A stretch of 64,000 nucleotides of DNA from Escherichia phage nieznany: the sequence record NC_052659.1. One strand, written 5' to 3'. Positions 6,176-26,937 of the stretch are shown here, piece after piece; position 1 is the stretch's first letter; every line of letters starts with the position of its first letter. Made by a program: the position numbers and the translations under genes. The notes beneath the pieces were generated by a model. It ran no database searches and was not told where the DNA came from. It was given only the letters and a program-made list of their open reading frames with translations.

Positions 6176-6625
6176 TCATGATTGAGTTCCTTTTTGTTTT
6201 TCAATAGCTGCACGAATTTCTGCTAAAGGTTCTGCTACCAAGTCTTCAACTTCTTGGATTTGTTCATTCATCACATCACGAACCATTTGAATACGCTCTT
6301 CAAGGGAAACAGCAAGTTCATCTGCATAAGCCATATTAAGAACGTGGTAGAAATTTTCTTGTGCACTTAAAGCACCAGATAACAAATAATCCTGATCTTC
6401 CTCTGGTAAAAGCATGTGTTGCTCATATTCAGCAAAAGTGTTTTTGTTAATCTCAAGCAAAGCACCCATCATAACATCATACTGATAATCTTTATGACCA
6501 GGATTGTTTAAAATAATATCTTCAAAGATATTAAGAAGAATCTTAGTAACAAAAGCATTGTTTTCGGCACCTTCCATCTGACGGATTACCGTGATTACTT
6601 CTTTTTCTTTAGCGTTTTGGCTCAT
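6176..6625 (-). CDS. hypothetical protein
   Basis: 149-aa ORF. Confidence 0.5.
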   Translation of the reverse strand: MSQNAKEKEVITVIRQMEGAENNAFVTKILLNIFEDIILNNPGHKDYQYDVMMGALLEINKNTFAEYEQHMLLPEEDQDYLLSGALSAQENFYHVLNMAYADELAVSLEERIQMVRDVMNEQIQEVEDLVAEPLAEIRAAIEKQKGTQS

Positions 6626-6815
6626 AGTGTTTCTCCTCTGATTCTATTTCGATATAGCCTGTGGTTTTGCACGGGTTACACTCGTAAATTTGACCTACAT
6701 CCGCCATAACATATCCTGCACCACCACAATAGGGGCAAGGCATAGGAGGACAAGGTATGGACGTAGTGATTGTTACGACATTATCAATTTCCAACATTTT
6801 CGCCATTATTACCAT
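6609..6815 (-). CDS. small Cys-rich (zinc-binding?) protein
   Basis: CPPMPCPYCGG ... CNPC motifs in 68 aa. Confidence 0.4.
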   Translation of the reverse strand: MVIMAKMLEIDNVVTITTSIPCPPMPCPYCGGAGYVMADVGQIYECNPCKTTGYIEIESEEKHYEPKR

Positions 6816-7057
6816 TCCGCTATTAACGTCAAACCAAGTGCATCGTTAAAACGCTCAACATTTGAGTATAGGTATGGAGGGGTTATTTGCTCTAAAATTT
6901 GTGCTGCTTCCACTTGGTGTTCTATGTTTTGAGAAGTTCGGGCATAAACTAAGACACCCATTTTATTCAAAATAAAAACAGAATCAGACCCATCCAGCTT
7001 ATCAACGGCTGCATACATTTTAGTCATATTTTCTCCTGGATTACCATTCAGCAACAA
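6809..7057 (-). CDS. hypothetical protein
   Basis: 82-aa ORF. Confidence 0.4.
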   Translation of the reverse strand: MLLNGNPGENMTKMYAAVDKLDGSDSVFILNKMGVLVYARTSQNIEHQVEAAQILEQITPPYLYSNVERFNDALGLTLIAEW

Positions 7058-7256
7058 GACTAGGATTCATAGCAAAAGCTTTGAAAGTTGTTATGTCATG
7101 ACTAACATTAAAACTAACACCTTTTACTTTCTCTAATATTTGAACTTTCGTCTCTCCGTCCCACGGTAGGATGATAACACCATCTTCTGTGATCAACCAC
7201 CAATGGTTCTCTCCATCTCGTGAATCTTTTGCTTTGTATAGAAAATTGGAACTCAT
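7041..7256 (-). CDS. hypothetical protein
   Basis: 71-aa ORF; TTGACA-N17-TTACAT promoter-like sequence upstream on minus strand. Confidence 0.4.
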   Translation of the reverse strand: MSSNFLYKAKDSRDGENHWWLITEDGVIILPWDGETKVQILEKVKGVSFNVSHDITTFKAFAMNPSLVAEW

Positions 7257-16132: not shown

Positions 16133-17771
16133 ATTATGCTCCTTTGTAGATTATGTTGGTGCGTTCACACTCTGCCACCAGCAAGCCAAGCTTTGTAAAA
16201 CTTCATTAGACGTAAGCTACTCAACGGAACATTTTTACTCTCTTGCATGATAATCTCCTCTCATCGTTAGCCATCTTTCATGGCAATCATCAATCACCAA
16301 CATCATACGATCAATCTTAGGGAATTACAATCGAATTATCATAGGGGATTCCTATCAATTATCCCCTATATACCGATTATTTTTGACACCCCACTCTTGT
16401 ATAAAAAGTAACCCAAAATATCTACGGGGAGAGATTATTTCGGGACACCCTGTTTCATGGCAATCATGGCAAGAATATCTAATAGAATCAATATCATATG
16501 GCAAAAATCATGGCGCATACGTAAGAAGTGCTTAACGCGAATTTTCGGGCCGTCAGGTCCACGCAGCGACAATTCCCAAATATCATGCGAATGAGAATAA
16601 TTATCATTCGTATTCAATGACTTATGCAAAGCTCATGCCAACGTAGCGACAAGGTGGGCCACTTGATTATAAATCACACAAACACTTATTTATCAATGGT
16701 TTGGCAACCTCATCATATGACGGAACAATGTCAACTAATCCCGCTCATGACAAGCAGACTATTATTTATATGAGAATGATTATTATTTAAACGTTTATTA
16801 ATATAAAAACTAGAATAAATCAAGATTATTCTGATTTTATTTACGTTTAAGAGAAGGTGCTCAACATATCGCGTAGCGATAGTATTCGCCCCCCAAAAGA
16901 TTAGCCTTTATTTTCTTGTATGTTTATACACTATGTGCACACTATGCAACCTGTCGCTATTCGCTCATGTTGCTACGTGCAATTATTCATCTTGCTAATG
17001 ATGATCACACTGAACGATAGTGATAACTCTTGTAATTACCACAATGATTATTGTTATTGCGCTAATGTTATGATCTTGGTAATTACATATAATGCTAATA
17101 ATAAGCCAGCGCAATAAGTGTAAGCGTCATTACGCTTGCAATTATTGCAAGCTACGCAGTAACAAGAAATAACCGTCACCGATGGTTATGATTGTTGGGG
17201 TGTAGTTGGCTTATTATTAGCTCGCTATGTGTCCGGCATAGCGTGCTAATGATGACTCTGTGAATGATTAGTTTTGTAATGATTTCATTCAGGCACTATT
17301 TTGCTAATAGTTATTATTTTAATGGTTTCGTTTGTTATTGTTCGTTAGTTGGTTGTTTTGTCATGTTATCGTTATTTTGCTTAGTATTCATCATGGTTTG
17401 ATTGTTTGTCGTTATCAATCATCTTGCTATTATTCCTTTGATTATGATTAGTTTGCTTATTGTTTTATGTTGTTTGTTGGTTAGTTGTTGCGAACTATTA
17501 TCAACATTATAGTTATGCACTTATATTGCATAGATAAACATGGATAGATGATAATGGTTATCATTGCACCAGAAAGGAGGTAAAAGGGTGTTTTTGATGG
17601 TTTGTTGTTGGTTGTTGATCGATTTTAACCGCTTTAAATGGCTCTCTAACAGCCTGTAACCCTGGGATGTATGGTTATTCGTTTGCTGGTTGATTAGCTC
17701 GATACCACGATTTATTCAGTTTTGTTCTGTGTCGGTTTTTCATAGGCGAAAGCTATCAACATTGTTCGGGC
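16133..17771. other. 1.6-kb gene-free region with repeated motifs and strong GT skew (17220-17700); candidate origin or non-coding locus
   Basis: No credible ORF; repeated CATGGCAATCAT and GTAGCGAC-type motifs; G+T-rich plus strand. Confidence 0.5.
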
Positions 17772-17808
17772 AAAAAGAAAGGGCGCTTGGTGCGCCCCTT
17801 GTTTTGTT
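17772..17808 (-). terminator. rho-independent terminator ending the leftward small-gene array (bidirectional shape)
   Basis: GGGCGCTTGGTGCGCCC hairpin flanked by A-run and T-run; same element recurs at 20124-20156. Confidence 0.55.
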
Positions 17809-18700: not shown

Positions 18701-18757
18701 GGCGGCACCATTGCCGCCCTACAAGATACATATTACCAGACTAAGCCGACTTGTCAA
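18701..18757 (-). promoter_or_regulatory. promoter (TTGACA..TAATAT) plus 5' leader stem-loop GGCGGCA-CCAT-TGCCGCC
   Basis: -35 complement at 18752-18757, -10 complement at 18730-18735, hairpin 18701-18718, then RBS. Confidence 0.5.
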
Positions 18758-18758
18758 A

Positions 18759-18869
18759 CTATTTTTTCTTTTTCTTTGCTTCCAACCGTCTAAGGTTACG
18801 GCTGGACTTATTACGCAAGGCGCTCAGATCGTCGTACCCTTTCCATGCTTGCATATCTTTCGGATTCAT
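18759..18869 (-). CDS. micro-protein (36 aa, basic C-terminus)
   Basis: ATG preceded by AAGGGGG; below ORF-track length cutoff. Confidence 0.3.
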   Translation of the reverse strand: MNPKDMQAWKGYDDLSALRNKSSRNLRRLEAKKKKK

Positions 18870-18878
18870 GTTACCCCC

Positions 18879-19040
18879 TTACTTGTTAGCCGGATCATAT
18901 ACCAGGACCGCGCCACTTGCTTTCACGCTTTCCGCTTCATAGTTGCGCAAATCGTTTTCTGTAAGATTGAGCGCGATCACTTCCTCGATCTCGATACCAG
19001 TGGCAAGGGCGATCTCTTTGATAATGTCTGCTATTTTCAT
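18879..19040 (-). CDS. small protein
   Basis: Internal ATG at 19040 chosen so as not to overlap neighbour. Confidence 0.35.
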   Translation of the reverse strand: MKIADIIKEIALATGIEIEEVIALNLTENDLRNYEAESVKASGAVLVYDPANK

Positions 19041-19050
19041 GGTGTGTACC

Positions 19051-19170
19051 TTATAAGATGATTGATAAGATAGTGACAACGAAAGCGATTATACTGATGG
19101 CAAATGTCATCTTTTTACCTTCGGATACTGCCGGATTCTCTACCGTGTATTCTACTGTGTACTTGCTCAT
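19051..19170 (-). CDS. micro membrane protein (39 aa)
   Basis: ATG after GAGAGGA RBS; hydrophobic C-terminus; downstream of promoter-like module at about 19194-19250. Confidence 0.3.
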   Translation of the reverse strand: MSKYTVEYTVENPAVSEGKKMTFAISIIAFVVTILSIIL

Positions 19171-19267
19171 CGTGTAATCCTCTCGTTTGCTTTGGGGACT
19201 ATTCCCGCCGCCCTATGAATTAAATATACACTATCTCAAAATGATTGCAAGCCTTTTTCTAAATTAT

Positions 19268-19552
19268 TTATGCAGTAAACAAACCATCATTTACAACGGC
19301 GGCGATGATCTCCCGTGCCATTGATTCAGGGAAAGGGGCGCTATAGTCCTGGCTTGTCTCGTCGGTGTCAGTGATACAATGATAAGCTAACGAGTAAAAG
19401 CCTTTACTAACTGTTTTCAGTGAGACGATGATCACTCGGTCAAGCTTATTGGTGAATGTTGCCGTTAATGTGTTACCCTCCTGCGTCATGTTGGACAAGT
19501 AAGCGAGATCATTAATCAGGGAAAACATTAGCACGGTGTTAGCTTTACTCAT
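19268..19552 (-). CDS. small protein
   Basis: Start at ATG 19552 after GAGGATG RBS. Confidence 0.45.
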   Translation of the reverse strand: MSKANTVLMFSLINDLAYLSNMTQEGNTLTATFTNKLDRVIIVSLKTVSKGFYSLAYHCITDTDETSQDYSAPFPESMAREIIAAVVNDGLFTA

Positions 19553-19568
19553 GATTGCATCCTCAAAG

Positions 19569-19617
19569 GGGCGCGGCACCATTGCCGCCCTACACGATAA
19601 CTATAACACAATGTAAA
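19569..19617 (-). promoter_or_regulatory. promoter-like sequence plus leader stem-loop (GGCACCATTGCC family)
   Basis: Hairpin 19569-19590; -35-like TTTACA complement at 19612-19617. Confidence 0.4.
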
Positions 19618-19623
19618 ACAGGA

Positions 19624-19830
19624 TCAACCTTTATTTTTCCACGGTGTCAGCTTGTTAATCATTGGTGATAAATAGCGTTTACCAACGTAAAACAGTACGC
19701 CAACTGATGCAACGGCGGCGACCTCATGCATAGCCGACGGGAAACGGGTATCATAATAAGATCCAATAATAGCGATAGCGGCAACGGCTGCAACGTCGAT
19801 AATGATTTTTTCTTGTTTTGCGGTGATCAT
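19624..19830 (-). CDS. small membrane protein
   Basis: 68 aa with hydrophobic core AAVAAIAIIGSYY. Confidence 0.45.
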   Translation of the reverse strand: MITAKQEKIIIDVAAVAAIAIIGSYYDTRFPSAMHEVAAVASVGVLFYVGKRYLSPMINKLTPWKNKG

Positions 19831-19852
19831 AATATTTACCTTTTTGTATGGT

Positions 19853-19909
19853 GGGGAACTATTCCCCGCCTGATGTAATACAGTTTAACAGGTCCGGTTA
19901 TGGTGTCAA
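19853..19909 (-). promoter_or_regulatory. promoter (TTGACA-N17-TAAACT) plus leader stem-loop GGGGAATAGTTCCCC
   Basis: -35 complement 19904-19909; hairpin 19853-19870. Confidence 0.5.
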
Positions 19910-19915
19910 CCGTTT

Positions 19916-20101
19916 TTAAAGATATTTTATGCTAATAACGTTTTCCGGTTTAACCTTGTTATAATGTGCATCAACATAGATCAAACCATCGTCAGAAAAG
20001 CCCAGGATCACGCCCTGCGCAATAAAACCGTATTCGTCACGGTAACGCACGGCTATTTTTAATGTTGCGCTGTACGCTGTTTTAAGCTCGTTTAAAATCA
20101 T
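19916..20101 (-). CDS. small protein
   Basis: 61-aa ORF. Confidence 0.4.
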   Translation of the reverse strand: MILNELKTAYSATLKIAVRYRDEYGFIAQGVILGFSDDGLIYVDAHYNKVKPENVISIKYL

Positions 20102-20123
20102 TTTTGTTTATCCTCTACATGTA

Positions 20124-20156
20124 AAAAGAAAGGGCGCTTGGTGCGCCCTTGTTATG
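20124..20156 (-). terminator. terminator candidate (second copy of AAAGAAAGGGCGCTTGGTGCGCCC element)
   Basis: Hairpin 20132-20148 with flanking T/A runs. Confidence 0.5.
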
Positions 20157-20303
20157 TTAATCCTCTAAATCCATCCAATTATATTTGTCACTCTTCCCGC
20201 GCTTTGTTTTATTACGCTTGTCGCCTTTGCGGATCACTTCCTCGTTCCAGGCCTTGCGGATCTTGGAAGATTGAATTTTTTCTGCGCGATTAGATGTATT
20301 CAT
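20157..20303 (-). CDS. micro-protein (48 aa, basic)
   Basis: ATG after GAAGAGGAAA RBS. Confidence 0.35.
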   Translation of the reverse strand: MNTSNRAEKIQSSKIRKAWNEEVIRKGDKRNKTKRGKSDKYNWMDLED

Positions 20304-20322
20304 TTTGTTTCCTCTTCATATG

Positions 20323-20376
20323 AGCGGCACCATTGCCGCTATATTGTTAATTTAAACTGTTTTGTAAAATTGTCAA
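20323..20376 (-). promoter_or_regulatory. promoter plus leader stem-loop
   Basis: Hairpin 20323-20340 (AGCGGCACCATTGCCGCT); -35 complement 20371-20376. Confidence 0.5.
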
Positions 20377-20382
20377 GGTTTA

Positions 20383-20736
20383 TCATTCATAAGAGCAAGC
20401 AAGGATCACGCCTGCAATATAAAGCCAATAATTTTCCCTTTCTCGTTGGATTTTATCATCGCGGCTATTCTCTTTAATGTATCCCCAGGATGTTAACAGG
20501 CGATCAATTTCCCAATATTCGAAAGCGATATTGATATCTGATGGCAAACCTTGTAACCATGATGCAAGTGCTTTAACAATACTATAATTAAAACGTGATT
20601 GGTTATCAGGGTACCAGTACTCGGAATTAAAACGGCGCATCAATTCCGCGATCTTCTCTTTTTCGGTTGTAATACCGTAATCATTAAAATCGATAGCGGC
20701 AAGGATGTACTCTTTAATTGCATTTTGTGCTTTCAT
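20383..20736 (-). CDS. small protein
   Basis: 117-aa ORF with AAGAGAGAAAG RBS. Confidence 0.5.
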   Translation of the reverse strand: MKAQNAIKEYILAAIDFNDYGITTEKEKIAELMRRFNSEYWYPDNQSRFNYSIVKALASWLQGLPSDINIAFEYWEIDRLLTSWGYIKENSRDDKIQRERENYWLYIAGVILACSYE

Positions 20737-20755
20737 GGTCTTTCTCTCTTTTTGA

Positions 20756-20812
20756 GCGGGAGCTATTCCCGCCCTACGTGTAACAGTTTACTGAAAATTA
20801 AATCCGTGTCAA
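20756..20812 (-). promoter_or_regulatory. promoter plus leader stem-loop
   Basis: Hairpin 20756-20772 (GCGGGAGCTATTCCCGC); -35 complement 20807-20812. Confidence 0.5.
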
Positions 20813-20815
20813 GCT

Positions 20816-21037
20816 TTATTTTGTTACTACCATTTGGTACCCTGTTTCAATGTTAGTAAATACTGTTATCCCGTCCTGGCGTTCACTCATTAGCATACAA
20901 GGCGCTAACATCCTTTCTACTGCCTTGCACTCGTTGTAAACGGCGGTTATATCTCCTGCGGCCTTGTCTTCTGTAGTAAATGTCTCGTTTACGTAAACCT
21001 GACCAGCAACAACGGCGACAATAGCAAAAGTGATCAT
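20816..21037 (-). CDS. small secreted or membrane protein
   Basis: Start at internal ATG giving MITFAIVAVVAGQVYV hydrophobic N-terminus. Confidence 0.4.
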   Translation of the reverse strand: MITFAIVAVVAGQVYVNETFTTEDKAAGDITAVYNECKAVERMLAPCMLMSERQDGITVFTNIETGYQMVVTK

Positions 21038-21116
21038 AATGTTTTTTCTCTTTATGTGTTTCGTTTCAATTAGTTGATAATACAGCAATTTGCAGATTAG
21101 TCTTTAGCAATTCATG

Positions 21117-21335
21117 CTATTTACTCACAACAATATCGAAAACAAATTTTTCTTTGTTGTCTAAGCTCACGTATCCGATTCGACCACGCAATCCGAGAGT
21201 AGTGCCGTATTCGTAACCATCAAGACCTTTAACCTTCCAATCCATGCCCATTAAAACCGCATTATATTTCTGACCAACTACAAAAGCGCCACCAGTTGAT
21301 TCAATGCAAACAACTTTAATTTTACGGATTGCCAT
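21117..21335 (-). CDS. small protein
   Basis: 72-aa ORF; upstream TTGACT-N16-TATAAT on minus strand (about 21378-21410). Confidence 0.45.
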   Translation of the reverse strand: MAIRKIKVVCIESTGGAFVVGQKYNAVLMGMDWKVKGLDGYEYGTTLGLRGRIGYVSLDNKEKFVFDIVVSK

Positions 21336-21412
21336 TTTCTTTCTCTCTTTCTGGTGATTGGTTTCTCTTCTCTATAGCGCCCATTATAAGGCGCTATAAC
21401 GAAAAGTCAACG

Positions 21413-21582
21413 ATTATTTTTTAAGGCTTAAAGTACCTAACTTGTCAGCATGACGTAGACCAGGGAAGATCCATTTTCCTGATTCATCTTTTACAGGGGC
21501 TTTAAGCGTAGCGCCCAGGTTGGCGGCGTTAACTTTACGTGCAACGTTGCGAGCGGCTTCACGGGTAGCGAAAGTGATCATG
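21413..21582 (-). CDS. micro-protein (55 aa)
   Basis: ATG with RBS; CGT/CTG-rich codons; below ORF-track cutoff. Confidence 0.4.
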
Positions 21583-21605
21583 ATATTTTCCTCTTCTCTT
21601 TGTTA

Positions 21606-21667
21606 GGCGGTGGACCATTCCGCCGCCTTGATGTAATACAGTTTACTCTTTTTCTTTCCCGTGTCAA
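21606..21667 (-). promoter_or_regulatory. promoter plus leader stem-loop
   Basis: Hairpin 21606-21627; -35 complement 21662-21667. Confidence 0.5.
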
Positions 21668-21676
21668 CAATCTTTT

Positions 21677-21904
21677 TCAGATTAATTCATCCAGGCATAA
21701 CAGGCGATCAACGTTGAGATCGGTCAGGCTGATGGTTGGCACCTGGTAGGATTCGATGTACTCGACGCTTGCATATTCCCCAAAATTAGCAATAGCCCAC
21801 TTATTCAAGATCTCACATACATCATTAATCTTTTTGTTTGTTACAACTGCAATAACCTGGGAAGTGCCAACGGTGCCGGATACGCGAACAATATTGATAG
21901 CCAT
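21677..21904 (-). CDS. small protein
   Basis: 75-aa ORF. Confidence 0.45.
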   Translation of the reverse strand: MAINIVRVSGTVGTSQVIAVVTNKKINDVCEILNKWAIANFGEYASVEYIESYQVPTISLTDLNVDRLLCLDELI

Positions 21905-21926
21905 AATCTTTAATCTCTCTGTTGTT

Positions 21927-21986
21927 GGCGGGAAACCACTTCCCGCCCTATGTGATACATCTTACACTAATTTTAAACGTTGTCAA
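21927..21986 (-). promoter_or_regulatory. promoter plus leader stem-loop
   Basis: Hairpin 21927-21947 (GGCGGGAAACCACTTCCCGCC); -35 complement 21981-21986. Confidence 0.5.
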
Positions 21987-21995
21987 CTGTTTTTA

Positions 21996-22235
21996 TTACA
22001 TTCCAACCATCGCGGCGCGGATCGCTGTAGTGCTATACTTGAAACCGTCTGGAGTTTTATCTTGTCCAGTTTGTTCCAGGAATAACATCATATCACGGGC
22101 AGCATCATTACGATTAGTATTAGCGGCGATAAATTCTTTCGCCAACCGATATAATGATTCATCGTTATTAATCCAAAGGCTTACATTCCAGTGAGTTTTA
22201 TTTTTGTGACCTAAGAACATTTTTGATTTAGCCAT
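21996..22235 (-). CDS. small protein
   Basis: 79-aa ORF. Confidence 0.45.
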   Translation of the reverse strand: MAKSKMFLGHKNKTHWNVSLWINNDESLYRLAKEFIAANTNRNDAARDMMLFLEQTGQDKTPDGFKYSTTAIRAAMVGM

Positions 22236-22259
22236 GATATTAATCTCTTTTTCAGTGAG

Positions 22260-22318
22260 GCGGGAAGTATTCCCGCTCTCTATGTAATACAGTTTACTCT
22301 TTTTATTCGTGCTGTCAA
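22260..22318 (-). promoter_or_regulatory. promoter plus leader stem-loop
   Basis: Hairpin 22260-22276 (GCGGGAAGTATTCCCGC); -35 complement 22313-22318. Confidence 0.5.
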
Positions 22319-22324
22319 TGCTTT

Positions 22325-22690
22325 TTATAAATCTTTTTTACGTTTAACATCGCTCGCATGACTGTATACAGTGATCCCATTGTCACGGCAAAAACGGGAA
22401 AGATACGCGCCGCGTGAAAACTCTTTACCTTCCATATTAATAACCTTGCTAAATTCTTCCAGGGCGACGGTATCAAAATGATCACCATAGCCATATTGAA
22501 ACGGAACGTTAACCACCTCGATCAGTTTACCGCCGATCTCAACGTCAACCATTAAAGAAAAATATGTGTTACCGTAAGACTGTTGAAACCAGCGACGGGC
22601 GCTAATGTGCACCGCTTCAATGCTGGATAATTCAATTTTAGCCGTGTTAGCCAGGGTAGCATAAGCGGAAACATTGATATTAATAGCCAT
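22325..22690 (-). CDS. small protein
   Basis: 121-aa ORF. Confidence 0.5.
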   Translation of the reverse strand: MAININVSAYATLANTAKIELSSIEAVHISARRWFQQSYGNTYFSLMVDVEIGGKLIEVVNVPFQYGYGDHFDTVALEEFSKVINMEGKEFSRGAYLSRFCRDNGITVYSHASDVKRKKDL

Positions 22691-22716
22691 GATGATAATC
22701 TCTCTTTTTGGTTAGT

Positions 22717-22769
22717 GGGAAGTATTCCCGATAAAAGTTATTATGCTTATACTATCACTCATTGTCAAT
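22717..22769 (-). promoter_or_regulatory. promoter plus degenerate leader stem-loop
   Basis: GGGAAGTATTCCC 22717-22729; -35 complement 22764-22769. Confidence 0.4.
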
Positions 22770-22787
22770 AGTATAAGACTAAAACTT

Positions 22788-22967
22788 TTAACGATAATCG
22801 TTATAGGCTTTATTGACCTGGCGAATGTAACATTCGAAAGCAAGATCAATGTATTCGTATTCACGCACATAATCACCATAGGTCACTACATACATTTTTA
22901 AAGTTTCCTCATAAGCCAGGAGGATCGAATCTAAACCTATAATCTCAGTTTTTGCAATGATAGCCAT
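22788..22967 (-). CDS. micro-protein (59 aa)
   Basis: ATG-initiated ORF downstream of promoter module; below ORF-track cutoff. Confidence 0.4.
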   Translation of the reverse strand: MAIIAKTEIIGLDSILLAYEETLKMYVVTYGDYVREYEYIDLAFECYIRQVNKAYNDYR

Positions 22968-22987
22968 GATGTTAACCTTTTATTGTT

Positions 22988-23044
22988 GGCGGCACCATTG
23001 CCGCCCTACGTGATAAACTATACCAGAAGTTTAAACAGTGTCAA
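22988..23044 (-). promoter_or_regulatory. promoter plus leader stem-loop
   Basis: Hairpin 22988-23005 (GGCGGCACCATTGCCGCC); -35 complement 23039-23044. Confidence 0.5.
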
Positions 23045-23050
23045 CCGTTT

Positions 23051-23413
23051 TTATTCGTAAATTTTACCGCTTTCGGCCCATACCATAACGCGGCGCATAC
23101 TATCCCAAGTGTTTTGATCCAAGTTTAAGCCGTGCAACTCTTCGGTACTTCCCAGACCAGGTACCGCTTTGTTGTAAGTCGCATATAAGCGCCCTTGATA
23201 CTCATACGCCAGAGTAAGATCCGTTTGAATCATCTTTTTAAGCATAGCATTAAGCATCATATTAGCGGCATGTTGATCACGTTTTAGCGGTAACATGTCA
23301 ATAAGGGCGCGATAAGCTGAAACATGAATATCAACCGTTTCACGTGGTAAATTTTTCATATCATCGCGGAAAGATACCAGATTAAACATGATAGTATTGA
23401 TTTGCTTGCTCAT
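23051..23413 (-). CDS. small protein
   Basis: 120-aa ORF. Confidence 0.5.
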   Translation of the reverse strand: MSKQINTIMFNLVSFRDDMKNLPRETVDIHVSAYRALIDMLPLKRDQHAANMMLNAMLKKMIQTDLTLAYEYQGRLYATYNKAVPGLGSTEELHGLNLDQNTWDSMRRVMVWAESGKIYE

Positions 23414-23434
23414 TGTGTTACCCTTTTTTGTTTT

Positions 23435-23495
23435 GGCGGGGAAGTATTCCGCCGCCCTATGTGATACATCTTATCAGATTAAAAAACGTTGTCAA
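23435..23495 (-). promoter_or_regulatory. promoter plus leader stem-loop
   Basis: Hairpin 23435-23456; -35 complement 23490-23495. Confidence 0.5.
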
Positions 23496-23503
23496 GAATA
23501 TTT

Positions 23504-23599
23504 TTAGAAAATAATAGCCGCTACTACAACCCAAAATGGAACGGCTAGAATGATAGCGTTAATCGTTCCAACCGTCAAGCTATTTTCTTTATTAATCAT
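23504..23599 (-). CDS. micro membrane peptide (31 aa)
   Basis: ATG after AAGAGG; entirely hydrophobic core; has its own promoter-hairpin module. Confidence 0.3.
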   Translation of the reverse strand: MINKENSLTVGTINAIILAVPFWVVVAAIIF

Positions 23600-23627
23600 T
23601 GTAAGCCTCTTGCATAATTTCACTATG

Positions 23628-23685
23628 AGCGGCACCATTGCCGCCCTACGTGGTAAATATTATGCCAGTGGCGGCGATATGTCAA
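23628..23685 (-). promoter_or_regulatory. promoter plus leader stem-loop
   Basis: Hairpin 23628-23647; -35 complement 23680-23685. Confidence 0.5.
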
Positions 23686-24248
23686 AGACTATTTTCAAAG
23701 TTTTCTAGTGCGATCCTTTTTTCTTCCTCTGTCGGCTGATAATCAGGAAAAGCATCAACACACAACAACGGCGGGATCTCTTCGTACTCTTCCTCTTCCG
23801 TTGTCTCCTCGTCTTCCTCCTGGGCTATGGCTGCAATTTTGGCTAATTTTCTTTCAGCTTGAATCAATTTACCATCAAGTACGTTTTTTGCCATGTTGTA
23901 AGCGGTCCAGGTGATGCGCTTACTTTCCAGGGCCTGATCGAGCGCCGCTATCTTGCTGGGGTATTCATCCAGGACACGAAAAGCTGGATCAACTTTGTAC
24001 AAAGGATTATCTTTCGCGCCGTCGCTCGCATCTTCCGCACTGGATAAATCAGCGTTACCATTTGCCAGCCAGCCAGGGCGCACATAACGCGCTTTTACGT
24101 TGCCGTTACTACGTGCTAATCTGTTACCTATTTGCTCACCACTATATCCCGTGGATTCATCGATAAGATGATCGGGAATGATGCGCGGATCATCTGCTTC
24201 ATGTTTTACCCAAGACTGGATCACATATTCGCGGCCCATATTAACCAC
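23682..24248 (-). CDS. hypothetical protein with acidic linker
   Basis: 188-aa ORF, largest in the array. Confidence 0.5.
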   Translation of the reverse strand: MVNMGREYVIQSWVKHEADDPRIIPDHLIDESTGYSGEQIGNRLARSNGNVKARYVRPGWLANGNADLSSAEDASDGAKDNPLYKVDPAFRVLDEYPSKIAALDQALESKRITWTAYNMAKNVLDGKLIQAERKLAKIAAIAQEEDEETTEEEEYEEIPPLLCVDAFPDYQPTEEEKRIALENFENSL

Positions 24249-24498
24249 CTTTTTTCAACAATTGGCATACTTTAAAAAGACTTGCTGAATCCTTGCAAGG
24301 GTAGAAAGATGTACGATAATCACGTACGCCAACCTTGAGGATCTCGATGTTCTCGCATGTTGTTTGATCAAAGATATTTATTTCATCACGCCCCCTTATA
24401 TAAACATAGTGGGGATGTATTAACGCATATTTTGCTAATCTGTAAAAAGCGTTATCTTTGAACGCGATCACGTGACCTTTTAATTTGATGTAAAACAT
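24241..24498 (-). CDS. small protein
   Basis: 85-aa ORF, AAGGTGG RBS. Confidence 0.45.
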   Translation of the reverse strand: MFYIKLKGHVIAFKDNAFYRLAKYALIHPHYVYIRGRDEINIFDQTTCENIEILKVGVRDYRTSFYPCKDSASLFKVCQLLKKGG

Positions 24499-24515
24499 TC
24501 TACCACCTTACAAAT

Positions 24516-24571
24516 AGCGGGAACTATTCCCGCTTTATGTAACATATTAACAAATTATTCGTTAATGTCAA
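24516..24571 (-). promoter_or_regulatory. promoter plus leader stem-loop (a second -35-like TGTCAA at 24614-24619)
   Basis: Hairpin 24516-24534 (AGCGGGAACTATTCCCGCT); -35 complement 24566-24571. Confidence 0.45.
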
Positions 24572-24574
24572 GCC

Positions 24575-24847
24575 TTAAAGCAAAAACGCTACATCTTGCG
24601 CTTTTAATGTAGTGTCAACCATTTTCGGGCTTTTATAATCAACAAAGCGCGCGGTTTTTTCAATAGCAAAACCGAGATAATCTTGTTTATTGAATTTACA
24701 TTCTTTCTTAAATGTTTCCCGCGCCACGGTGATCGCTGCGTCCAGGGATAAACGCCCGTCAATATTGATATTAGCGAAAGATCCGCCACCGCTCATAGGT
24801 TTACCAGTTGTGCCAGCTACGATCATTGTTGCGCTATATGATGCCAT
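24575..24847 (-). CDS. small protein
   Basis: 90-aa ORF. Confidence 0.45.
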   Translation of the reverse strand: MASYSATMIVAGTTGKPMSGGGSFANINIDGRLSLDAAITVARETFKKECKFNKQDYLGFAIEKTARFVDYKSPKMVDTTLKAQDVAFLL

Positions 24848-24872
24848 GATGATAATCTCTCTTCTGTTACGA

Positions 24873-24932
24873 GCGGGAAACCACTTCCCGCCCTATGTGA
24901 TACATCTTATCAGGTTGTTGTTTGTTGTCAAT
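24873..24932 (-). promoter_or_regulatory. promoter plus leader stem-loop
   Basis: Hairpin 24873-24891; -35 complement 24927-24932. Confidence 0.5.
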
Positions 24933-24937
24933 AGTTT

Positions 24938-25135
24938 TTATTCTATTCCTGCAATTTGATTAACGCGCTTGCATTTTGTAGCGTGCTGGTCTTCTGTAAT
25001 GACTCCCATTTCTAACAGGGAATCAATGAAAGATAAAACCGTTTCATGATCATCCTGGGGGTGACTGAACTCAGTAAAACCGTTTACCACTACGTTGATT
25101 TGTCCAGCTTTCGCCACAATGTGCAATGTTGCCAT
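24938..25135 (-). CDS. small protein
   Basis: Start at internal ATG 25135 with GGAG RBS, downstream of hairpin 25154-25172. Confidence 0.45.
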   Translation of the reverse strand: MATLHIVAKAGQINVVVNGFTEFSHPQDDHETVLSFIDSLLEMGVITEDQHATKCKRVNQIAGIE

Positions 25136-25153
25136 GATCTTAACTCCAAATAG

Positions 25154-25213
25154 TGAGCGGCACCATTGCCGCCCTACAAGATGAATACTACGCCGCCGTC
25201 TGGTTAACGTCAA
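25154..25213 (-). promoter_or_regulatory. promoter (TTGACG -35) plus leader stem-loop; first module of leftward array
   Basis: Hairpin 25154-25172 (GAGCGGCACCATTGCCGCC); -35 complement 25208-25213. Confidence 0.45.
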
Positions 25214-25321
25214 CCATTTTTCAATCTTTTTTATTTTCTTTTTGCTTGCTATATATAAAGAAAAGGGCTATTATCTTTCTACCGCGCCAACCAGGGCGCA
25301 CAACAAAGAAAGGGCGATACC

Positions 25322-25585
25322 ATGACAACTACATTACACCTTATGCACTCATTGGGCTGGCAAGGCGGCACGGTGCACCAGGTAGCAAGCGCAACGGGCT
25401 TAAAGGTTGAAACAGTTCTCAACCTGGGCGATCATAGGGTGGAAGAAATAGATCATTTTGATACGTTCGCAAATGGTTATCTATGGGCTTGCAGTGGCGG
25501 CGGGGAAAGCAAGATACCACCAGGGGCGCGGGGCGATATGTATTTTTGGTTAGGTGTCCTATCCTGGCAAGAAAACAAAAAATAA
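25322..25585 (+). CDS. hypothetical protein (uncertain)
   Basis: 87-aa GC-rich ORF on plus strand, isolated among minus-strand genes. Confidence 0.3.
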   Translation: MTTTLHLMHSLGWQGGTVHQVASATGLKVETVLNLGDHRVEEIDHFDTFANGYLWACSGGGESKIPPGARGDMYFWLGVLSWQENKK

Positions 25586-25587
25586 TC

Positions 25588-25616
25588 TTGACAAGCCCAG
25601 GGATCGGGCTTATACT
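25588..25616 (+). promoter_or_regulatory. sigma70-like promoter TTGACA-N17-TATACT
   Basis: -35 25588-25593, -10 25611-25616; followed by about 110-nt GC-rich non-coding segment. Confidence 0.45.
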
Positions 25617-25974
25617 GTTTTACATACAGAAGAGGAAGCGCCACCCCCACGGCGTAAAGGCGGGGCTAACATACCAGGGGGCACTGGTTGGAAGGTTGAT
25701 CGCCGGTAGGCTGGGCGCTATATATTTGTAAAGAAATGTAAAGATAAAATAATCGCTTGCTTTCCTAGCTGGATCTGTTATTCTTATTACATGGCGAGGG
25801 GACACGGGAGCGCGAGACAAACACCGCCCCTGCGCGTCATTCTCTAAATGAGATTGATTCTTATTTAATAAGGTAAATGACAATCATTCTCATTTATAAA
25901 CTTAAATGCGAATCATTATCATTTGCATTTCCATATGAGAACTCTTCTCATTTTCACCTGCATAAAAATTTTTG

Positions 25975-26155
25975 TAAACTTTAAATTTTGCTTTTGTACT
26001 TTCATTTTTGTAAAAGCAAAAAAACTTTAAATACTGTGGGCGCGCAAAATTTTTAAAATTTTCCTTGACTTTTGAGTTTTGTTTTGTATCTAACATTTTA
26101 AGATAATTTTCCTAAACTTTAAATTTTGGTTTTCAACTTTCACTTTTGTAAATTC
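25975..26155. repeat. two direct repeats of about 43 bp (25975-26016 and 26113-26155) in AT-rich intergenic DNA
   Basis: TAAACTTTAAATTTTG(C/G)TTTT..ACTTTCA.TTTTGTAAA repeated; AAACTTTAAA motif four times. Confidence 0.45.
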
Positions 26156-26302
26156 TTAAAAAGTTTAAATAATTTGAGGGATTTTTGAGATAAAAGATAG
26201 TGGGAATTTGATATAACCTTTAATCTTATTGGTAAACCTTCAGGAACCCACTCAGATCGAATCCTAGTGATGCAAACTGAAAAAGACAAGGGTTTGTATA
26301 GG

Positions 26303-26340
26303 ACAAAATAACAGGCTCTCTACGGTGCTGTAGGAGCCTT
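26303..26340 (-). terminator. terminator candidate downstream of NADAR gene
   Basis: Imperfect hairpin GGCTCTCTAC..GTAGGAGCC with T-rich flank on minus strand. Confidence 0.4.
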
Positions 26341-26394
26341 ATTTCTGGGCTACAAAGTGACACCTTTGTTCTAAAAATGAAAAAAGTTAAAATA

Positions 26395-26937
26395 TCACAA
26401 ATATCGTCTTTGCGGTATTTTGTCTGGGAAAAGTATTTCGATCAGTTTATTATGATATTTGCCTAAAAGATTCTGCCCTTTCCAGGTAGCAGGGTTTAGC
26501 ACCCCTGGTTCATACATTCCCATTCCAATACCGTAAACCTTATCGTAAGGACTTGCTTCAACAAACGTTTTGTATTGGTAAAGGTGTAAGTCTGCATACA
26601 AATCTGGATTCTGTACATATTTCAAGCATAAGCCTCGCATAACAATACGCTCACGGTTCTCTTCCCACATATCATTATTAAAACCAGATACCGCTCGACC
26701 CATACGTTTGTAGTATGCTTGTTTCCTCTCGTTGTCACGTATAGTTGAGTGATCAAGGATAGCTGCTGCAATCGCATGATCCTTGAACAGCAAAGCCTTA
26801 CGCCACATCATATATTGCTCAACACAACAGAAAGTCTCATTGTAACCTGGTTCAGTTTCTGTAAAGGGTGCAATATACCAATTACTAAACACATCTTTAT
26901 GTGAAAAGAAGAATACATATTCATCAGTTATTCTCAT
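26395..26937 (-). CDS. NADAR-domain (YbiA/DUF1768-like) protein
   Basis: N-terminal FFFSHKDVFSNWY..F and EQYMMWRKALLF match NADAR conserved blocks. Confidence 0.6.
   Translation of the reverse strand: MRITDEYVFFFSHKDVFSNWYIAPFTETEPGYNETFCCVEQYMMWRKALLFKDHAIAAAILDHSTIRDNERKQAYYKRMGRAVSGFNNDMWEENRERIVMRGLCLKYVQNPDLYADLHLYQYKTFVEASPYDKVYGIGMGMYEPGVLNPATWKGQNLLGKYHNKLIEILFPDKIPQRRYL

Follow-up and report, generated by a model that had tools for sequence, protein, structure and literature searches.

We use comparative sequence analysis to study an intergenic island of Escherichia phage nieznany, which lies within a 64,000-nucleotide stretch of sequence record NC_052659.1 (hereafter the window; positions are counted from its first letter, and plus denotes the strand given there). 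Our central conclusion is that a small, structured RNA of about 90 bases, which does not code for protein and which we call RNA-1, probably has a gene of its own at positions 25588-25711 of the plus strand. A preliminary description, made from the letters of the window, had proposed a near-consensus rightward promoter at 25588-25616 followed by an unusually GC-rich, untranslated segment (25620-25735) as a candidate structured small RNA. Both parts of that proposal gain support: the promoter recurs throughout the relatives, and the segment shows compensatory changes on two alignments, G.U pairs that favour the plus strand, conservation that extends beyond that of the flanks, and no conserved reading frame. 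On this comparative evidence the GC-rich segment is a conserved folded RNA of the plus strand. It is a new, unannotated family with no match among catalogued RNAs, although phage-encoded small RNAs are themselves a known kind.

Conservation and distribution of RNA-1

The GC content of 25620-25735 is 54%, rising to 62% in the conserved core (25625-25711), compared with 38.8% for the whole window, and just 0.11% of 116-nt windows are equally GC-rich. A sensitive BLAST search with 25260-25850 as the query returned 233 phage records from two subfamilies. The distant genera among them, including Seunavirus (PVP-SE1, GAP31), Certrevirus (phiTE, CR9), Mydovirus, Henunavirus and Avunavirus, match only at about positions 360-485 of the query (window 25619-25744), with 72-82% DNA identity and the flanks lost, and in their records the matched segment lies mostly where there is no annotated feature. 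Pieces of the locus are present in 360 phage records, and RNA-1 itself is distributed over the Stephanstirmvirinae and most genera of the Vequintavirinae.

We built a covariance model of RNA-1 (R1) from 43 sequences. It detects 54 loci with scores of 50-105 bits, and its single match in the window, at 25625-25711, has 96.6 bits. Run with its filters off, the same model finds no RNA-1 in phage rV5. Outside phages, a degenerate pattern applied to 185,579 species genomes of bacteria and archaea gave 44 matches, one of which the model accepted (a 4-kb contig of a metagenome-assembled genome, 100 bits), the others scoring 22 bits or less; a search of 5,426 Escherichia coli genomes gave no match. 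With just one of the 44 pattern matches real and none in E. coli, we reject a bacterial or prophage origin of RNA-1.

We likewise reject membership of a known RNA family. Searched with Rfam 15, the whole window has no match at the gathering threshold; relaxing the limit to E = 10 brings up none over 25588-25800, and five diverse relatives have none at E = 1 or below. ARAGORN finds no transfer RNA (tRNA) or transfer-messenger RNA gene in the window. We rejected a tRNA-like origin, which the tRNA annotations around RNA-1 in OY757067 and OY978796 had suggested, because these are displaced and OY757067.1 yields no tRNA with ARAGORN; in both records (OY757067.1, our L033, and OY978796.1, our L035) the tRNA and coding sequence (CDS) features misfit the sequence, and the annotation appears shifted. 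Several motifs and topologies inspected by eye were also dropped, their nucleotides being unconserved across variants and Rfam giving no match: the GGAA motif of signal recognition particle RNA, AAGGUG anti-Shine-Dalgarno pairing, the CsrA GGA motif, the kink-turn and a ribozyme topology like that of hepatitis delta virus.

One relative has an unusual arrangement. In L020 (IMGVR_UViG_2974574029, about 6177-7127) the RNA-1 block, element 1, is directly followed by an inserted gene for an HNH-type endonuclease, the junction lying between ...GATCGCTGGTA and CAACG..., and downstream of this gene stand a second, diverged copy of element 1, of the CCAA type, and a copy of element 2 (described below). 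From its sequence this looks like a homing event that carried in foreign flanking sequence.

Fold and strand of RNA-1

A model of 19 base pairs, whose parts are listed in Table 1, is 95.9% paired on a plain MAFFT alignment with seven compensatory pairs, an outcome reached by 0 of 500 shuffles, and 95.5% paired with eight compensatory pairs on the alignment fitted to the model. When its register is shifted, the model pairs at most 52.5% on the MAFFT alignment and at most 55% over the alignments. Applied to the R1 matches, RNAalifold independently gives the closing helix, both 2-bp steps flanking the GGGG bulge, and the apical hairpin. The structure and covariance search that the preliminary description had suggested as a check came out in favour of a folded RNA.

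The manner in which the helices vary is informative. The pseudoknot partners change jointly, to CCAA:UUGG in five unique sequences and CCAG:CUGG in one, with CUCC:GGGG as a wobble variant and one sequence mismatched. The apical hairpin varies freely in length and sequence and always keeps its pairing, with a bulged base near the foot and loops that include UUCG and GAAA tetraloops. Among the unpaired nucleotides, those of the 5' CGCC and of the tail AUCGCCGGUAG are invariant, as are two A's of the internal loop. We assign the fold to the plus strand because G.U pairs are kept and A.C is absent: the wobble cells of the helices comprise five G.U and no A.C, and 42 distinct sequences retain one particular G.U pair, where the opposite strand would have a C.A mismatch.

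The central CGGCG has a second potential partner: it could pair with the 5' CGCC instead of the 3' CGCCG, the result being a compact H-type pseudoknot. Three sequences in which the first position of CGCC is A and not C mildly disfavour this 5' pairing. Judging from the sequences, both pairings may form and so give a switch, in which pairing of the invariant CGCC with the central GGCG could free the 3' tail and change the conformation of the RNA.

Promoter P1 and the hairpin in its spacer

The promoter P1 agrees with the sigma70 consensus at 11/12 positions and is the top of 13 promoter-like sites in 24900-26500, where 4.0 are expected. Its orientation opposes the flow of the surrounding leftward early genes. 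Across 46 unique upstream regions, gathered from GenBank phages, IMG/VR and metagenomes, the position of P1 is kept in all 46, with a match of at least 9/12, a spacer of 17-18 nt, and an end lying 18-23 nt before the conserved.GCC of the core.

The spacer of P1 contains a GC hairpin. In relatives the arms of this hairpin change together, its loops are often GNRA (GAAA, GCAA, GTAA) and a T-rich run follows, and for these reasons we read it as the terminator of the upstream ORF (open reading frame) nested in the next promoter. It is thus likely, from its sequence, to be the intrinsic terminator of the 87-amino-acid (87-aa) ORF that precedes RNA-1.

Table 1. Features of the RNA-1 island and its surroundings, in window positions.
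Feature	Position	Strand	Remarks
Small early gene array	left of region	-	annotated genes and ORF list
Divergent leftward early promoter, TTGACG-N17-TAGTAT	25185-25213	-	followed by hairpin GCGGCAATGGTGCCGC of the 5' untranslated region (25157-25172)
Promoter-like site, TTGCTA-N17-TATTAT	25246-25274	+	putative promoter of the rightward small ORF; promoter scan
87-aa ORF	25322-25585	+	only plus-strand gene nearby; PHROG 19316, no assigned function
Mechanical ORFs overlapping the segment	25554-25709; 25483-25731; 25620-25883; 25477-25650	+; +; -; -	ORF list
Promoter P1, TTGACA-N17-TATACT	25588-25616 (-35 25588-25593, -10 25611-25616)	+	start inferred near 25622-25624
GC hairpin AAGCCC-AGGGATC-GGGCTT with T-rich tail	25593-25621	+	inside P1 spacer
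RNA-1 conserved core	25625-25711	+	R1, RNAalifold, pair counts
RNA-1: purine-rich leader	25625-25638	+	
RNA-1: invariant CGCC	25639-25642	+	unpaired in the 19-pair model
RNA-1: pseudoknot CCCC(C):GGGG	25644-25648 with 25662-25665	+	
RNA-1: closing helix CGGCG:CGCCG	25650-25654 with 25701-25705	+	
RNA-1: 2-bp steps GC:GU and CU:AG	25660-25661 with 25695-25696; 25666-25667 with 25693-25694	+	
RNA-1: variable hairpin	25670-25677 with 25684-25690	+	T25672 bulged; loop 25678-25683
RNA-1: tail GGUAG	25705-25709	+	
Direct repeat GTAAA-N5-GTAAA (GTAAA-GAAAT-GTAAA)	25728-25742	+	exact CpxR consensus match, predicted site
Promoter P2, TTGCTT-N16-TATTCT	25757-25784	+	weak, 8/12; read by eye, below scan threshold in window
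Element 2, conserved block	25789-25842	+	invariant motif GAGACAAACACC at 25814-25825; model R2
Four 19-bp palindromic boxes	25848-25866, 25877-25895, 25906-25924, 25935-25953		exactly 29 bp apart; consensus AATGAGAATGATTCTCATT
AT-rich repeat region	25967-26176		72-nt direct repeats, AAACTTTAAA boxes, three AnTn tracts
AAACTTTAAA boxes	25976, 26022, 26114; AAAGTTTAAA at 26160		read directly; repeat family
Hairpin GGCTCTCTAC...GTAGGAGCC	26314-26346 (hairpin 26314-26338)		T-rich on both sides
NADAR/DUF1768 gene and its block	26395-26937	-	right side of region

Elements between RNA-1 and the AT-rich region

RNA-1 is followed by an A-rich, ARN-like tract, UGUAAAGAAAUGUAAAGA, and in the window, phiTE and PVP-SE1 we find no plus-strand intrinsic terminator after either element 1 or element 2. 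Beyond the tract lies a direct repeat that matches exactly the CpxR boxes of Enterobacteria, for which the described consensus is GTAAA(N)4-8GTAAA (PMC9603713). It is centred about 56 bp upstream of the inferred start of a second promoter, P2, and 15 bp upstream of the P2 -35. Of 45 unique relatives, 37 keep the repeat without a mismatch, and the window holds no other such site; a site of this type is not rare by itself, at least one being present in 33 of 100 shuffles.

The preliminary description had not separated out P2 and the conserved block behind it (25757-25842), which we call element 2. The promoter scan detects P2 at the same place in phiTE (TTGCAA-17-TATATT) and in PVP-SE1 (TTGATC-16-TATTAT with TG). 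The ends of element 2 can pair (ACAUGGCG with CGUCAU), and its covariance model, R2, scores 67.8 bits in the window and finds 50 matches, rV5 included. Pairing in the terminal helix reaches 91-92% and includes many G.U pairs, which we regard as moderate support. RNAalifold finds no consensus fold for element 2 and its folding energies are ordinary, a crude scan for stems around its conserved loop was too noisy for use, and we reject the idea of a well-folded RNA here, R2 supporting the terminal helix only (an inner 3-bp stem is 71% paired).

Element 2 is more widespread than RNA-1, and rV5 has two copies of it. In that phage (L113, NC_011041) positions 2300-2580 hold two tandem modules, each consisting of a promoter, a block like element 2 (GGGAGACAAYCACCGGGG) and a Fur-box-like palindrome, and the annotated minus-strand gene rv5_gp193 overlaps them. 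Three genera, Seunavirus, Mydovirus and Henunavirus, have a further rightward promoter behind the palindromic boxes, the third in the series; its -10 is TG-extended, and it points into A6T6-rich repeats (L003 2750-2779, L033 about 2275-2310, L027 about 2150-2180); small minus-strand CDSs annotated at this promoter, such as PVP-SE1 gp202 and GAP31_043A (noted as having a 'poor RBS', or ribosome-binding site), may be spurious.

Palindromic boxes resembling host-regulator sites

Further downstream the preliminary description had placed iterons (about 25840-25960). The repeated boxes are real, but they are imperfect 19-nt palindromes that resemble Fur-box operators and not direct-repeat iterons. 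Of 45 unique relatives, 43 carry from one to five such boxes here, and 53 unique boxes underlie the consensus. The core TGAGAAT-N-ATTCTCA agrees with the enterobacterial Fur motif in its 7-1-7 form (TGATAATnATTATCA) at 12 of 14 positions, while in the 19-mer register of the Fur box (GATAATGATAATCATTATC) just 8-14 of 19 positions match; some relatives (L014, L037) have a perfect TGATAATGATTATCA, and TGAGAAT occurs in a described iron box (PMC10665472).

These sites nonetheless differ from usual Fur and CpxR boxes in that they belong to a virulent phage and flank non-coding RNA genes, not iron or envelope genes. The 29-bp spacing of the boxes is also unusual, and a phage protein could be the real ligand. 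On sequence grounds the boxes could be bound either by host Fur or by a protein conserved among the phages; the product of the 87-aa ORF is an unlikely candidate, because the boxes also occur in genera without this ORF.

A second cluster of four Fur-box-like palindromes lies at 16592-17563 (16592, 16771, 17489, 17549). It falls within a 1.6-kb stretch, 16200-17800, that is poor in ORFs and rich in repeats, many of them of the GCTAATGAT type, and that by its sequence may be a second regulatory or structural non-coding region.

How RNA-1 might act

In the mechanism we propose, host RNA polymerase would transcribe RNA-1 immediately after infection, and the product would act in trans as a folded RNA, perhaps by binding a protein as a decoy or regulator. 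We lean towards protein binding over long antisense pairing because conservation sits in junctions, bulges and a short tail and not in one long accessible stretch, because we find no extended complementarity to RNA-1 in E. coli genomes or within the window, and because no terminator with a U-tail is present. Our search for literature on the transcriptomes or non-coding RNAs of these phages found nothing relevant.

Known RNAs offer two sets of comparisons. Like the pseudo-ToxI RNA of PhiTE (PMC3475682), the pRNA of phi29 and, as a host analogue, 6S RNA, all of which act as folded protein ligands, RNA-1 is short, highly structured, without an ORF and apparently dependent on shape; several of these RNAs are pseudoknotted, and their own promoters drive them during infection. 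RNA-1 differs in having no sequence or model similarity to any of them and, compared with ToxI, in lacking tandem repeats (there is one copy per genome) and a toxin partner. PhiTE, a member of the same phage group, has RNA-1 as well, and the 5.2-kb PhiTE locus around RNA-1 contains no ToxI-like sequence, so we reject an identity with pseudo-ToxI. The second set consists of compact pseudoknot aptamers such as the preQ1-I/II, SAM-II, fluoride and guanidine-III riboswitches. They are of similar size, about 70 nt, and RNA-1 resembles them in its 4-bp pseudoknot helix beside an A-rich strand, in having unpaired nucleotides that never vary and a single variable hairpin, and in the two exclusive pairings that it may adopt. 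Unlike those riboswitches, RNA-1 has no Rfam match, no regulated ORF downstream and no expression platform, and stands alone behind a constitutive-looking promoter.

Several observations weigh against an independent gene for a protein-binding RNA. Because the sequences are related, the count of compensatory cells exceeds the number of independent events. Covariation cannot choose between the alternative pairings, as the closing helix and the 5' CGCC scarcely vary. The folding energy is unremarkable in single-sequence tests (z of +0.75 for the core and -2.33 for a 132-nt stretch), and the lowest-energy fold of the window sequence departs from the comparative model. P1 is known as a consensus match only, and with no plus-strand terminator behind it RNA-1 may belong to a longer transcript, so that the length of about 100 nt given in the preliminary description is a guess. 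Protein binding, for its part, is read solely from the shape of the conservation; short seed pairing with host mRNAs could be at work, and a weak leftward terminator in the leader of RNA-1 (see below) could explain part of the invariance.

Alternative readings of the island

Short seed pairing is the alternative we take most seriously, though we consider it unlikely. Base-pairing small RNAs encoded by phages and prophages are well known, and RNA-1 or element 2 might act on host or phage mRNAs in this way, with or without Hfq. An own promoter without an ORF, invariant single-stranded stretches beside variable stems and the ARN-like tract would all fit such an RNA, and the invariant tail of RNA-1 and the motif of element 2 are the candidate seeds. 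The missing Rho-independent terminator with a U-tail, in the window as in phiTE and PVP-SE1, speaks against it, as does the density of tertiary-type conservation in RNA-1, which exceeds what a seed needs. E. coli genomes hold no extended match; in the window the element-2 motif has seven matches with at most two mismatches where 4.6 are expected, and the tail matches same-sense sites only. Targets of the conserved motifs inside the window were accordingly discarded, none being above chance.

The AT-rich region on the right of the island raises the question of whether the transcripts serve replication. The preliminary description had reported two 43-bp direct repeats and four boxes here. All four boxes are present, and the direct repeats are real, only longer than described: 25967-26038 and 26105-26176 are 72 nt each, 82% identical and spaced by 138 bp. 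Positions 25850-26250 are the most AT-rich part of the window (24% GC, containing its most AT-rich 300 nt) and hold three of its five AnTn tracts. The preliminary description would have counted an absence of these repeats from related genomes against its reading; they are present, 67 of 69 matching records covering at least 80% of 25955-26395 and 62 of 69 being at least 95% identical. This conservation holds within Phapecoctavirus only, and other genera carry different direct repeats at the same place.

In a replication origin, P1 and P2, together with the third promoter in other genera, would fire into the AT-rich stretch (25850-26300), and their G-rich transcripts would prime replication or activate unwinding through an R-loop or transcriptional activation. 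T4 oriF and oriG, the T7 primary origin and ColE1 RNA II are the systems to compare, having in common with the island promoters aimed at an AT-rich, unwinding-prone stretch and a G-rich transcript. The tandem rightward promoters, the base composition, AnTn tracts and long direct repeats of the downstream stretch, a GC skew that turns positive over 25300-25800, and the possession by each genus of its own direct repeats, as expected of initiator-specific iterons, would all agree with such a role; the origin of rV5-like phages is moreover undefined in the literature (PMC3606486). We nevertheless rank this reading second among the alternatives and think it improbable. That selection acts on RNA folding and not on a hybrid is shown by the compensatory changes and by the tetraloops, so that the selected feature differs from that of the known origins, and RNA-1 lies 140-250 nt from the AT-rich stretch, with P2, element 2 and the four palindromic boxes standing between them, again unlike those origins. 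The phage rV5 retains AT-rich repeats yet lacks RNA-1. Support from DnaA boxes and a skew switch was sought and found absent: the region has no DnaA box, and cumulative GC skew keeps falling on both sides of it. No initiator protein was identified.

Very unlikely, in our judgement, is a cis-acting aptamer or switch, in which RNA-1 would sense a ligand or protein and control read-through into, or the activity of, what lies downstream (P2, the boxes and the AT-rich region) by means of mutually exclusive CGCC:GGCG and CGGCG:CGCCG pairings. The compact pseudoknotted fold with invariant unpaired nucleotides does resemble small aptamers, two alternative helices share the central CGGCG, and RNA-1 sits at the 5' end of a transcription unit. 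What such a switch would control is harder to see, as no relative has a plus-strand ORF downstream, and neither a terminator nor a ribosome-binding site provides an expression platform in the window, phiTE or PVP-SE1. Riboswitch models in Rfam give no match even at E = 10, and the alternative helices never vary, so that neither is tested by covariation.

The invariant blocks might instead matter as DNA, being bound by a protein, targeted by a homing endonuclease or serving as a leftward intrinsic terminator, a reading to which we attach hardly any weight. The reverse complement of the leader and CGCC...GGCG (CGCCGTGGGGGTGGCG then CTTCCTCTTC) does score as a weak minus-strand terminator at 25654-25639, with the same terminator-like match at the same place in PVP-SE1, and to judge by the sequence 25639-25654 may serve both strands; in L020 the insertion point of the HNH gene coincides with the 3' edge of element 1, and the nearby CpxR-like and Fur-like sites are DNA-level features. 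All this accounts for at most 30 nt, and leaves unexplained the compensatory changes of hairpin and pseudoknot, the UUCG and GAAA loops and the G.U pair kept in 42 sequences.

There remains the coding potential of the segment. The preliminary description had found no ORF, which is not literally so, because mechanical ORFs and GenBank CDSs overlap the segment, but its substance holds: no reading frame is conserved across the 46 unique relatives, no plus frame staying open across the region in any of them and the two best minus frames being open in nine and three. GenBank has two 'frameshifted' minus-strand CDSs here (Schickermooser_00256 and 00257) and phAPEC8_00257 in phAPEC8. Near-identical Phapecoctavirus genomes differ in homopolymer length, C4 or C5 at 25644-25648 (the pseudoknot strand) and G4 to G7 at 25677-25681 (the hairpin loop), and these differences, which are either tolerated slippage or sequencing error, explain the frameshift notes. 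A minus-strand protein gene as annotated, for which the ORFs at 25620-25883 and 25477-25650 and the GenBank CDSs would speak, can be dismissed almost outright and is rejected here, since its frame is broken in the window itself and closed in most relatives, the indels are not multiples of three, the conservation is base-paired and not codon-like, and the annotated CDS overlaps a conserved plus-strand ORF and promoter.

Significance of the island

Returning to RNA-1 as the product of its own gene, one can ask what the island as a whole might do. A bold and rather doubtful possibility is a control hub that reads host physiology, in which RNA-1, as a new class of pseudoknotted, protein- or ligand-binding RNA, and a second small RNA would have their expression, or the firing of an adjacent origin, gated by CpxR (envelope stress) and Fur (iron) acting on conserved consensus sites. 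Sites of this kind are shared by phages that infect E. coli, Salmonella, Klebsiella, Cronobacter, Pectobacterium and Erwinia, and if the CpxR-like and Fur-like sites are functional, the island would offer a rare example of a lytic phage whose early programme is tied to host stress regulators.

The phage group includes candidates for therapy and biocontrol (phAPEC8, phi92, PVP-SE1 and phages of the BASEL collection) whose early regions consist almost wholly of unknowns. Current annotations miss RNA-1 or mislabel it as a frameshifted protein. It would give RNA databases a new family, and it is a cheap-to-test handle on early host takeover or anti-defence. Corrections are due for phAPEC8_00257 and its equivalents, which are spurious CDSs, for the 'PHIRE promoters' (see below) and for the displaced tRNA features.

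Genomic setting and neighbouring genes

Positions 25200-26400 are 99.8% identical, in reverse-complement orientation, to Escherichia phage vB_EcoM_Schickermooser (Phapecoctavirus, Stephanstirmvirinae). The annotated genes flanking the island are all on the minus strand of the window, and, as the preliminary description had it, the region parts the NADAR block on its right from the array of small early genes on its left. This layout is constant across relatives: a rightward island within leftward early genes, usually opening with a small plus-strand ORF.

That ORF is here the 87-aa one. It is annotated on the plus strand in tuntematon, 24-2-1, LTH01 and SSBI34, and shares an N-terminal motif, LGWQGGTVHQVA..TGL, with phiTE_079; the small ORFs of this phage and phiTE belong to PHROG 19316/33408, and phiTE has an equivalent plus-strand promoter upstream of its homologous ORF. 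Searches of Pfam and PDB with the 87-aa ORF gave nothing significant, and a single-sequence AlphaFold model was unusable (predicted local distance difference test score, pLDDT, of 40). Seunavirus and Mydovirus have an unrelated DUF7170 ORF at the same position and CR9 has none annotated, and for this reason the small ORF is not an obligatory partner of RNA-1.

To the left, hairpin GCGGCAATGGTGCCGC occurs in seven minus-strand copies over 18702-25172 (at 18702, 19573, 20324, 22989, 23629, 24518 and 25157), each directly downstream of the sigma70 promoter of a small early gene; one variant, GCGGGAATAGTTCCCG, retains the pairing. The GenBank record of phAPEC8 labels these hairpins 'PHIRE promoters', and they look like conserved stem-loops in the 5' untranslated regions of early mRNAs. 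To the right, the hairpin at 26314 folds on the plus strand with -14.8 kcal/mol (z of -2.85) and is an annotated terminator in phAPEC8; by sequence, the leftward NADAR block and the island both end at this hairpin, which is also the latest possible stop for rightward transcripts.

Two features of the public records deserve mention. Three GenBank records (ECGD1, LTH01 and ETEC-TG) end within the region, at window positions of about 25417, 25708 and 26113, which could reflect assembly breaks at repeats or a physical cause such as genome ends. Records named as phages of Campylobacter, Acinetobacter or Pseudomonas (for example MG065650 and OP562383) are about 96% identical to E. coli Phapecoctavirus here, and probably either their host labels are wrong or the records are contaminants.

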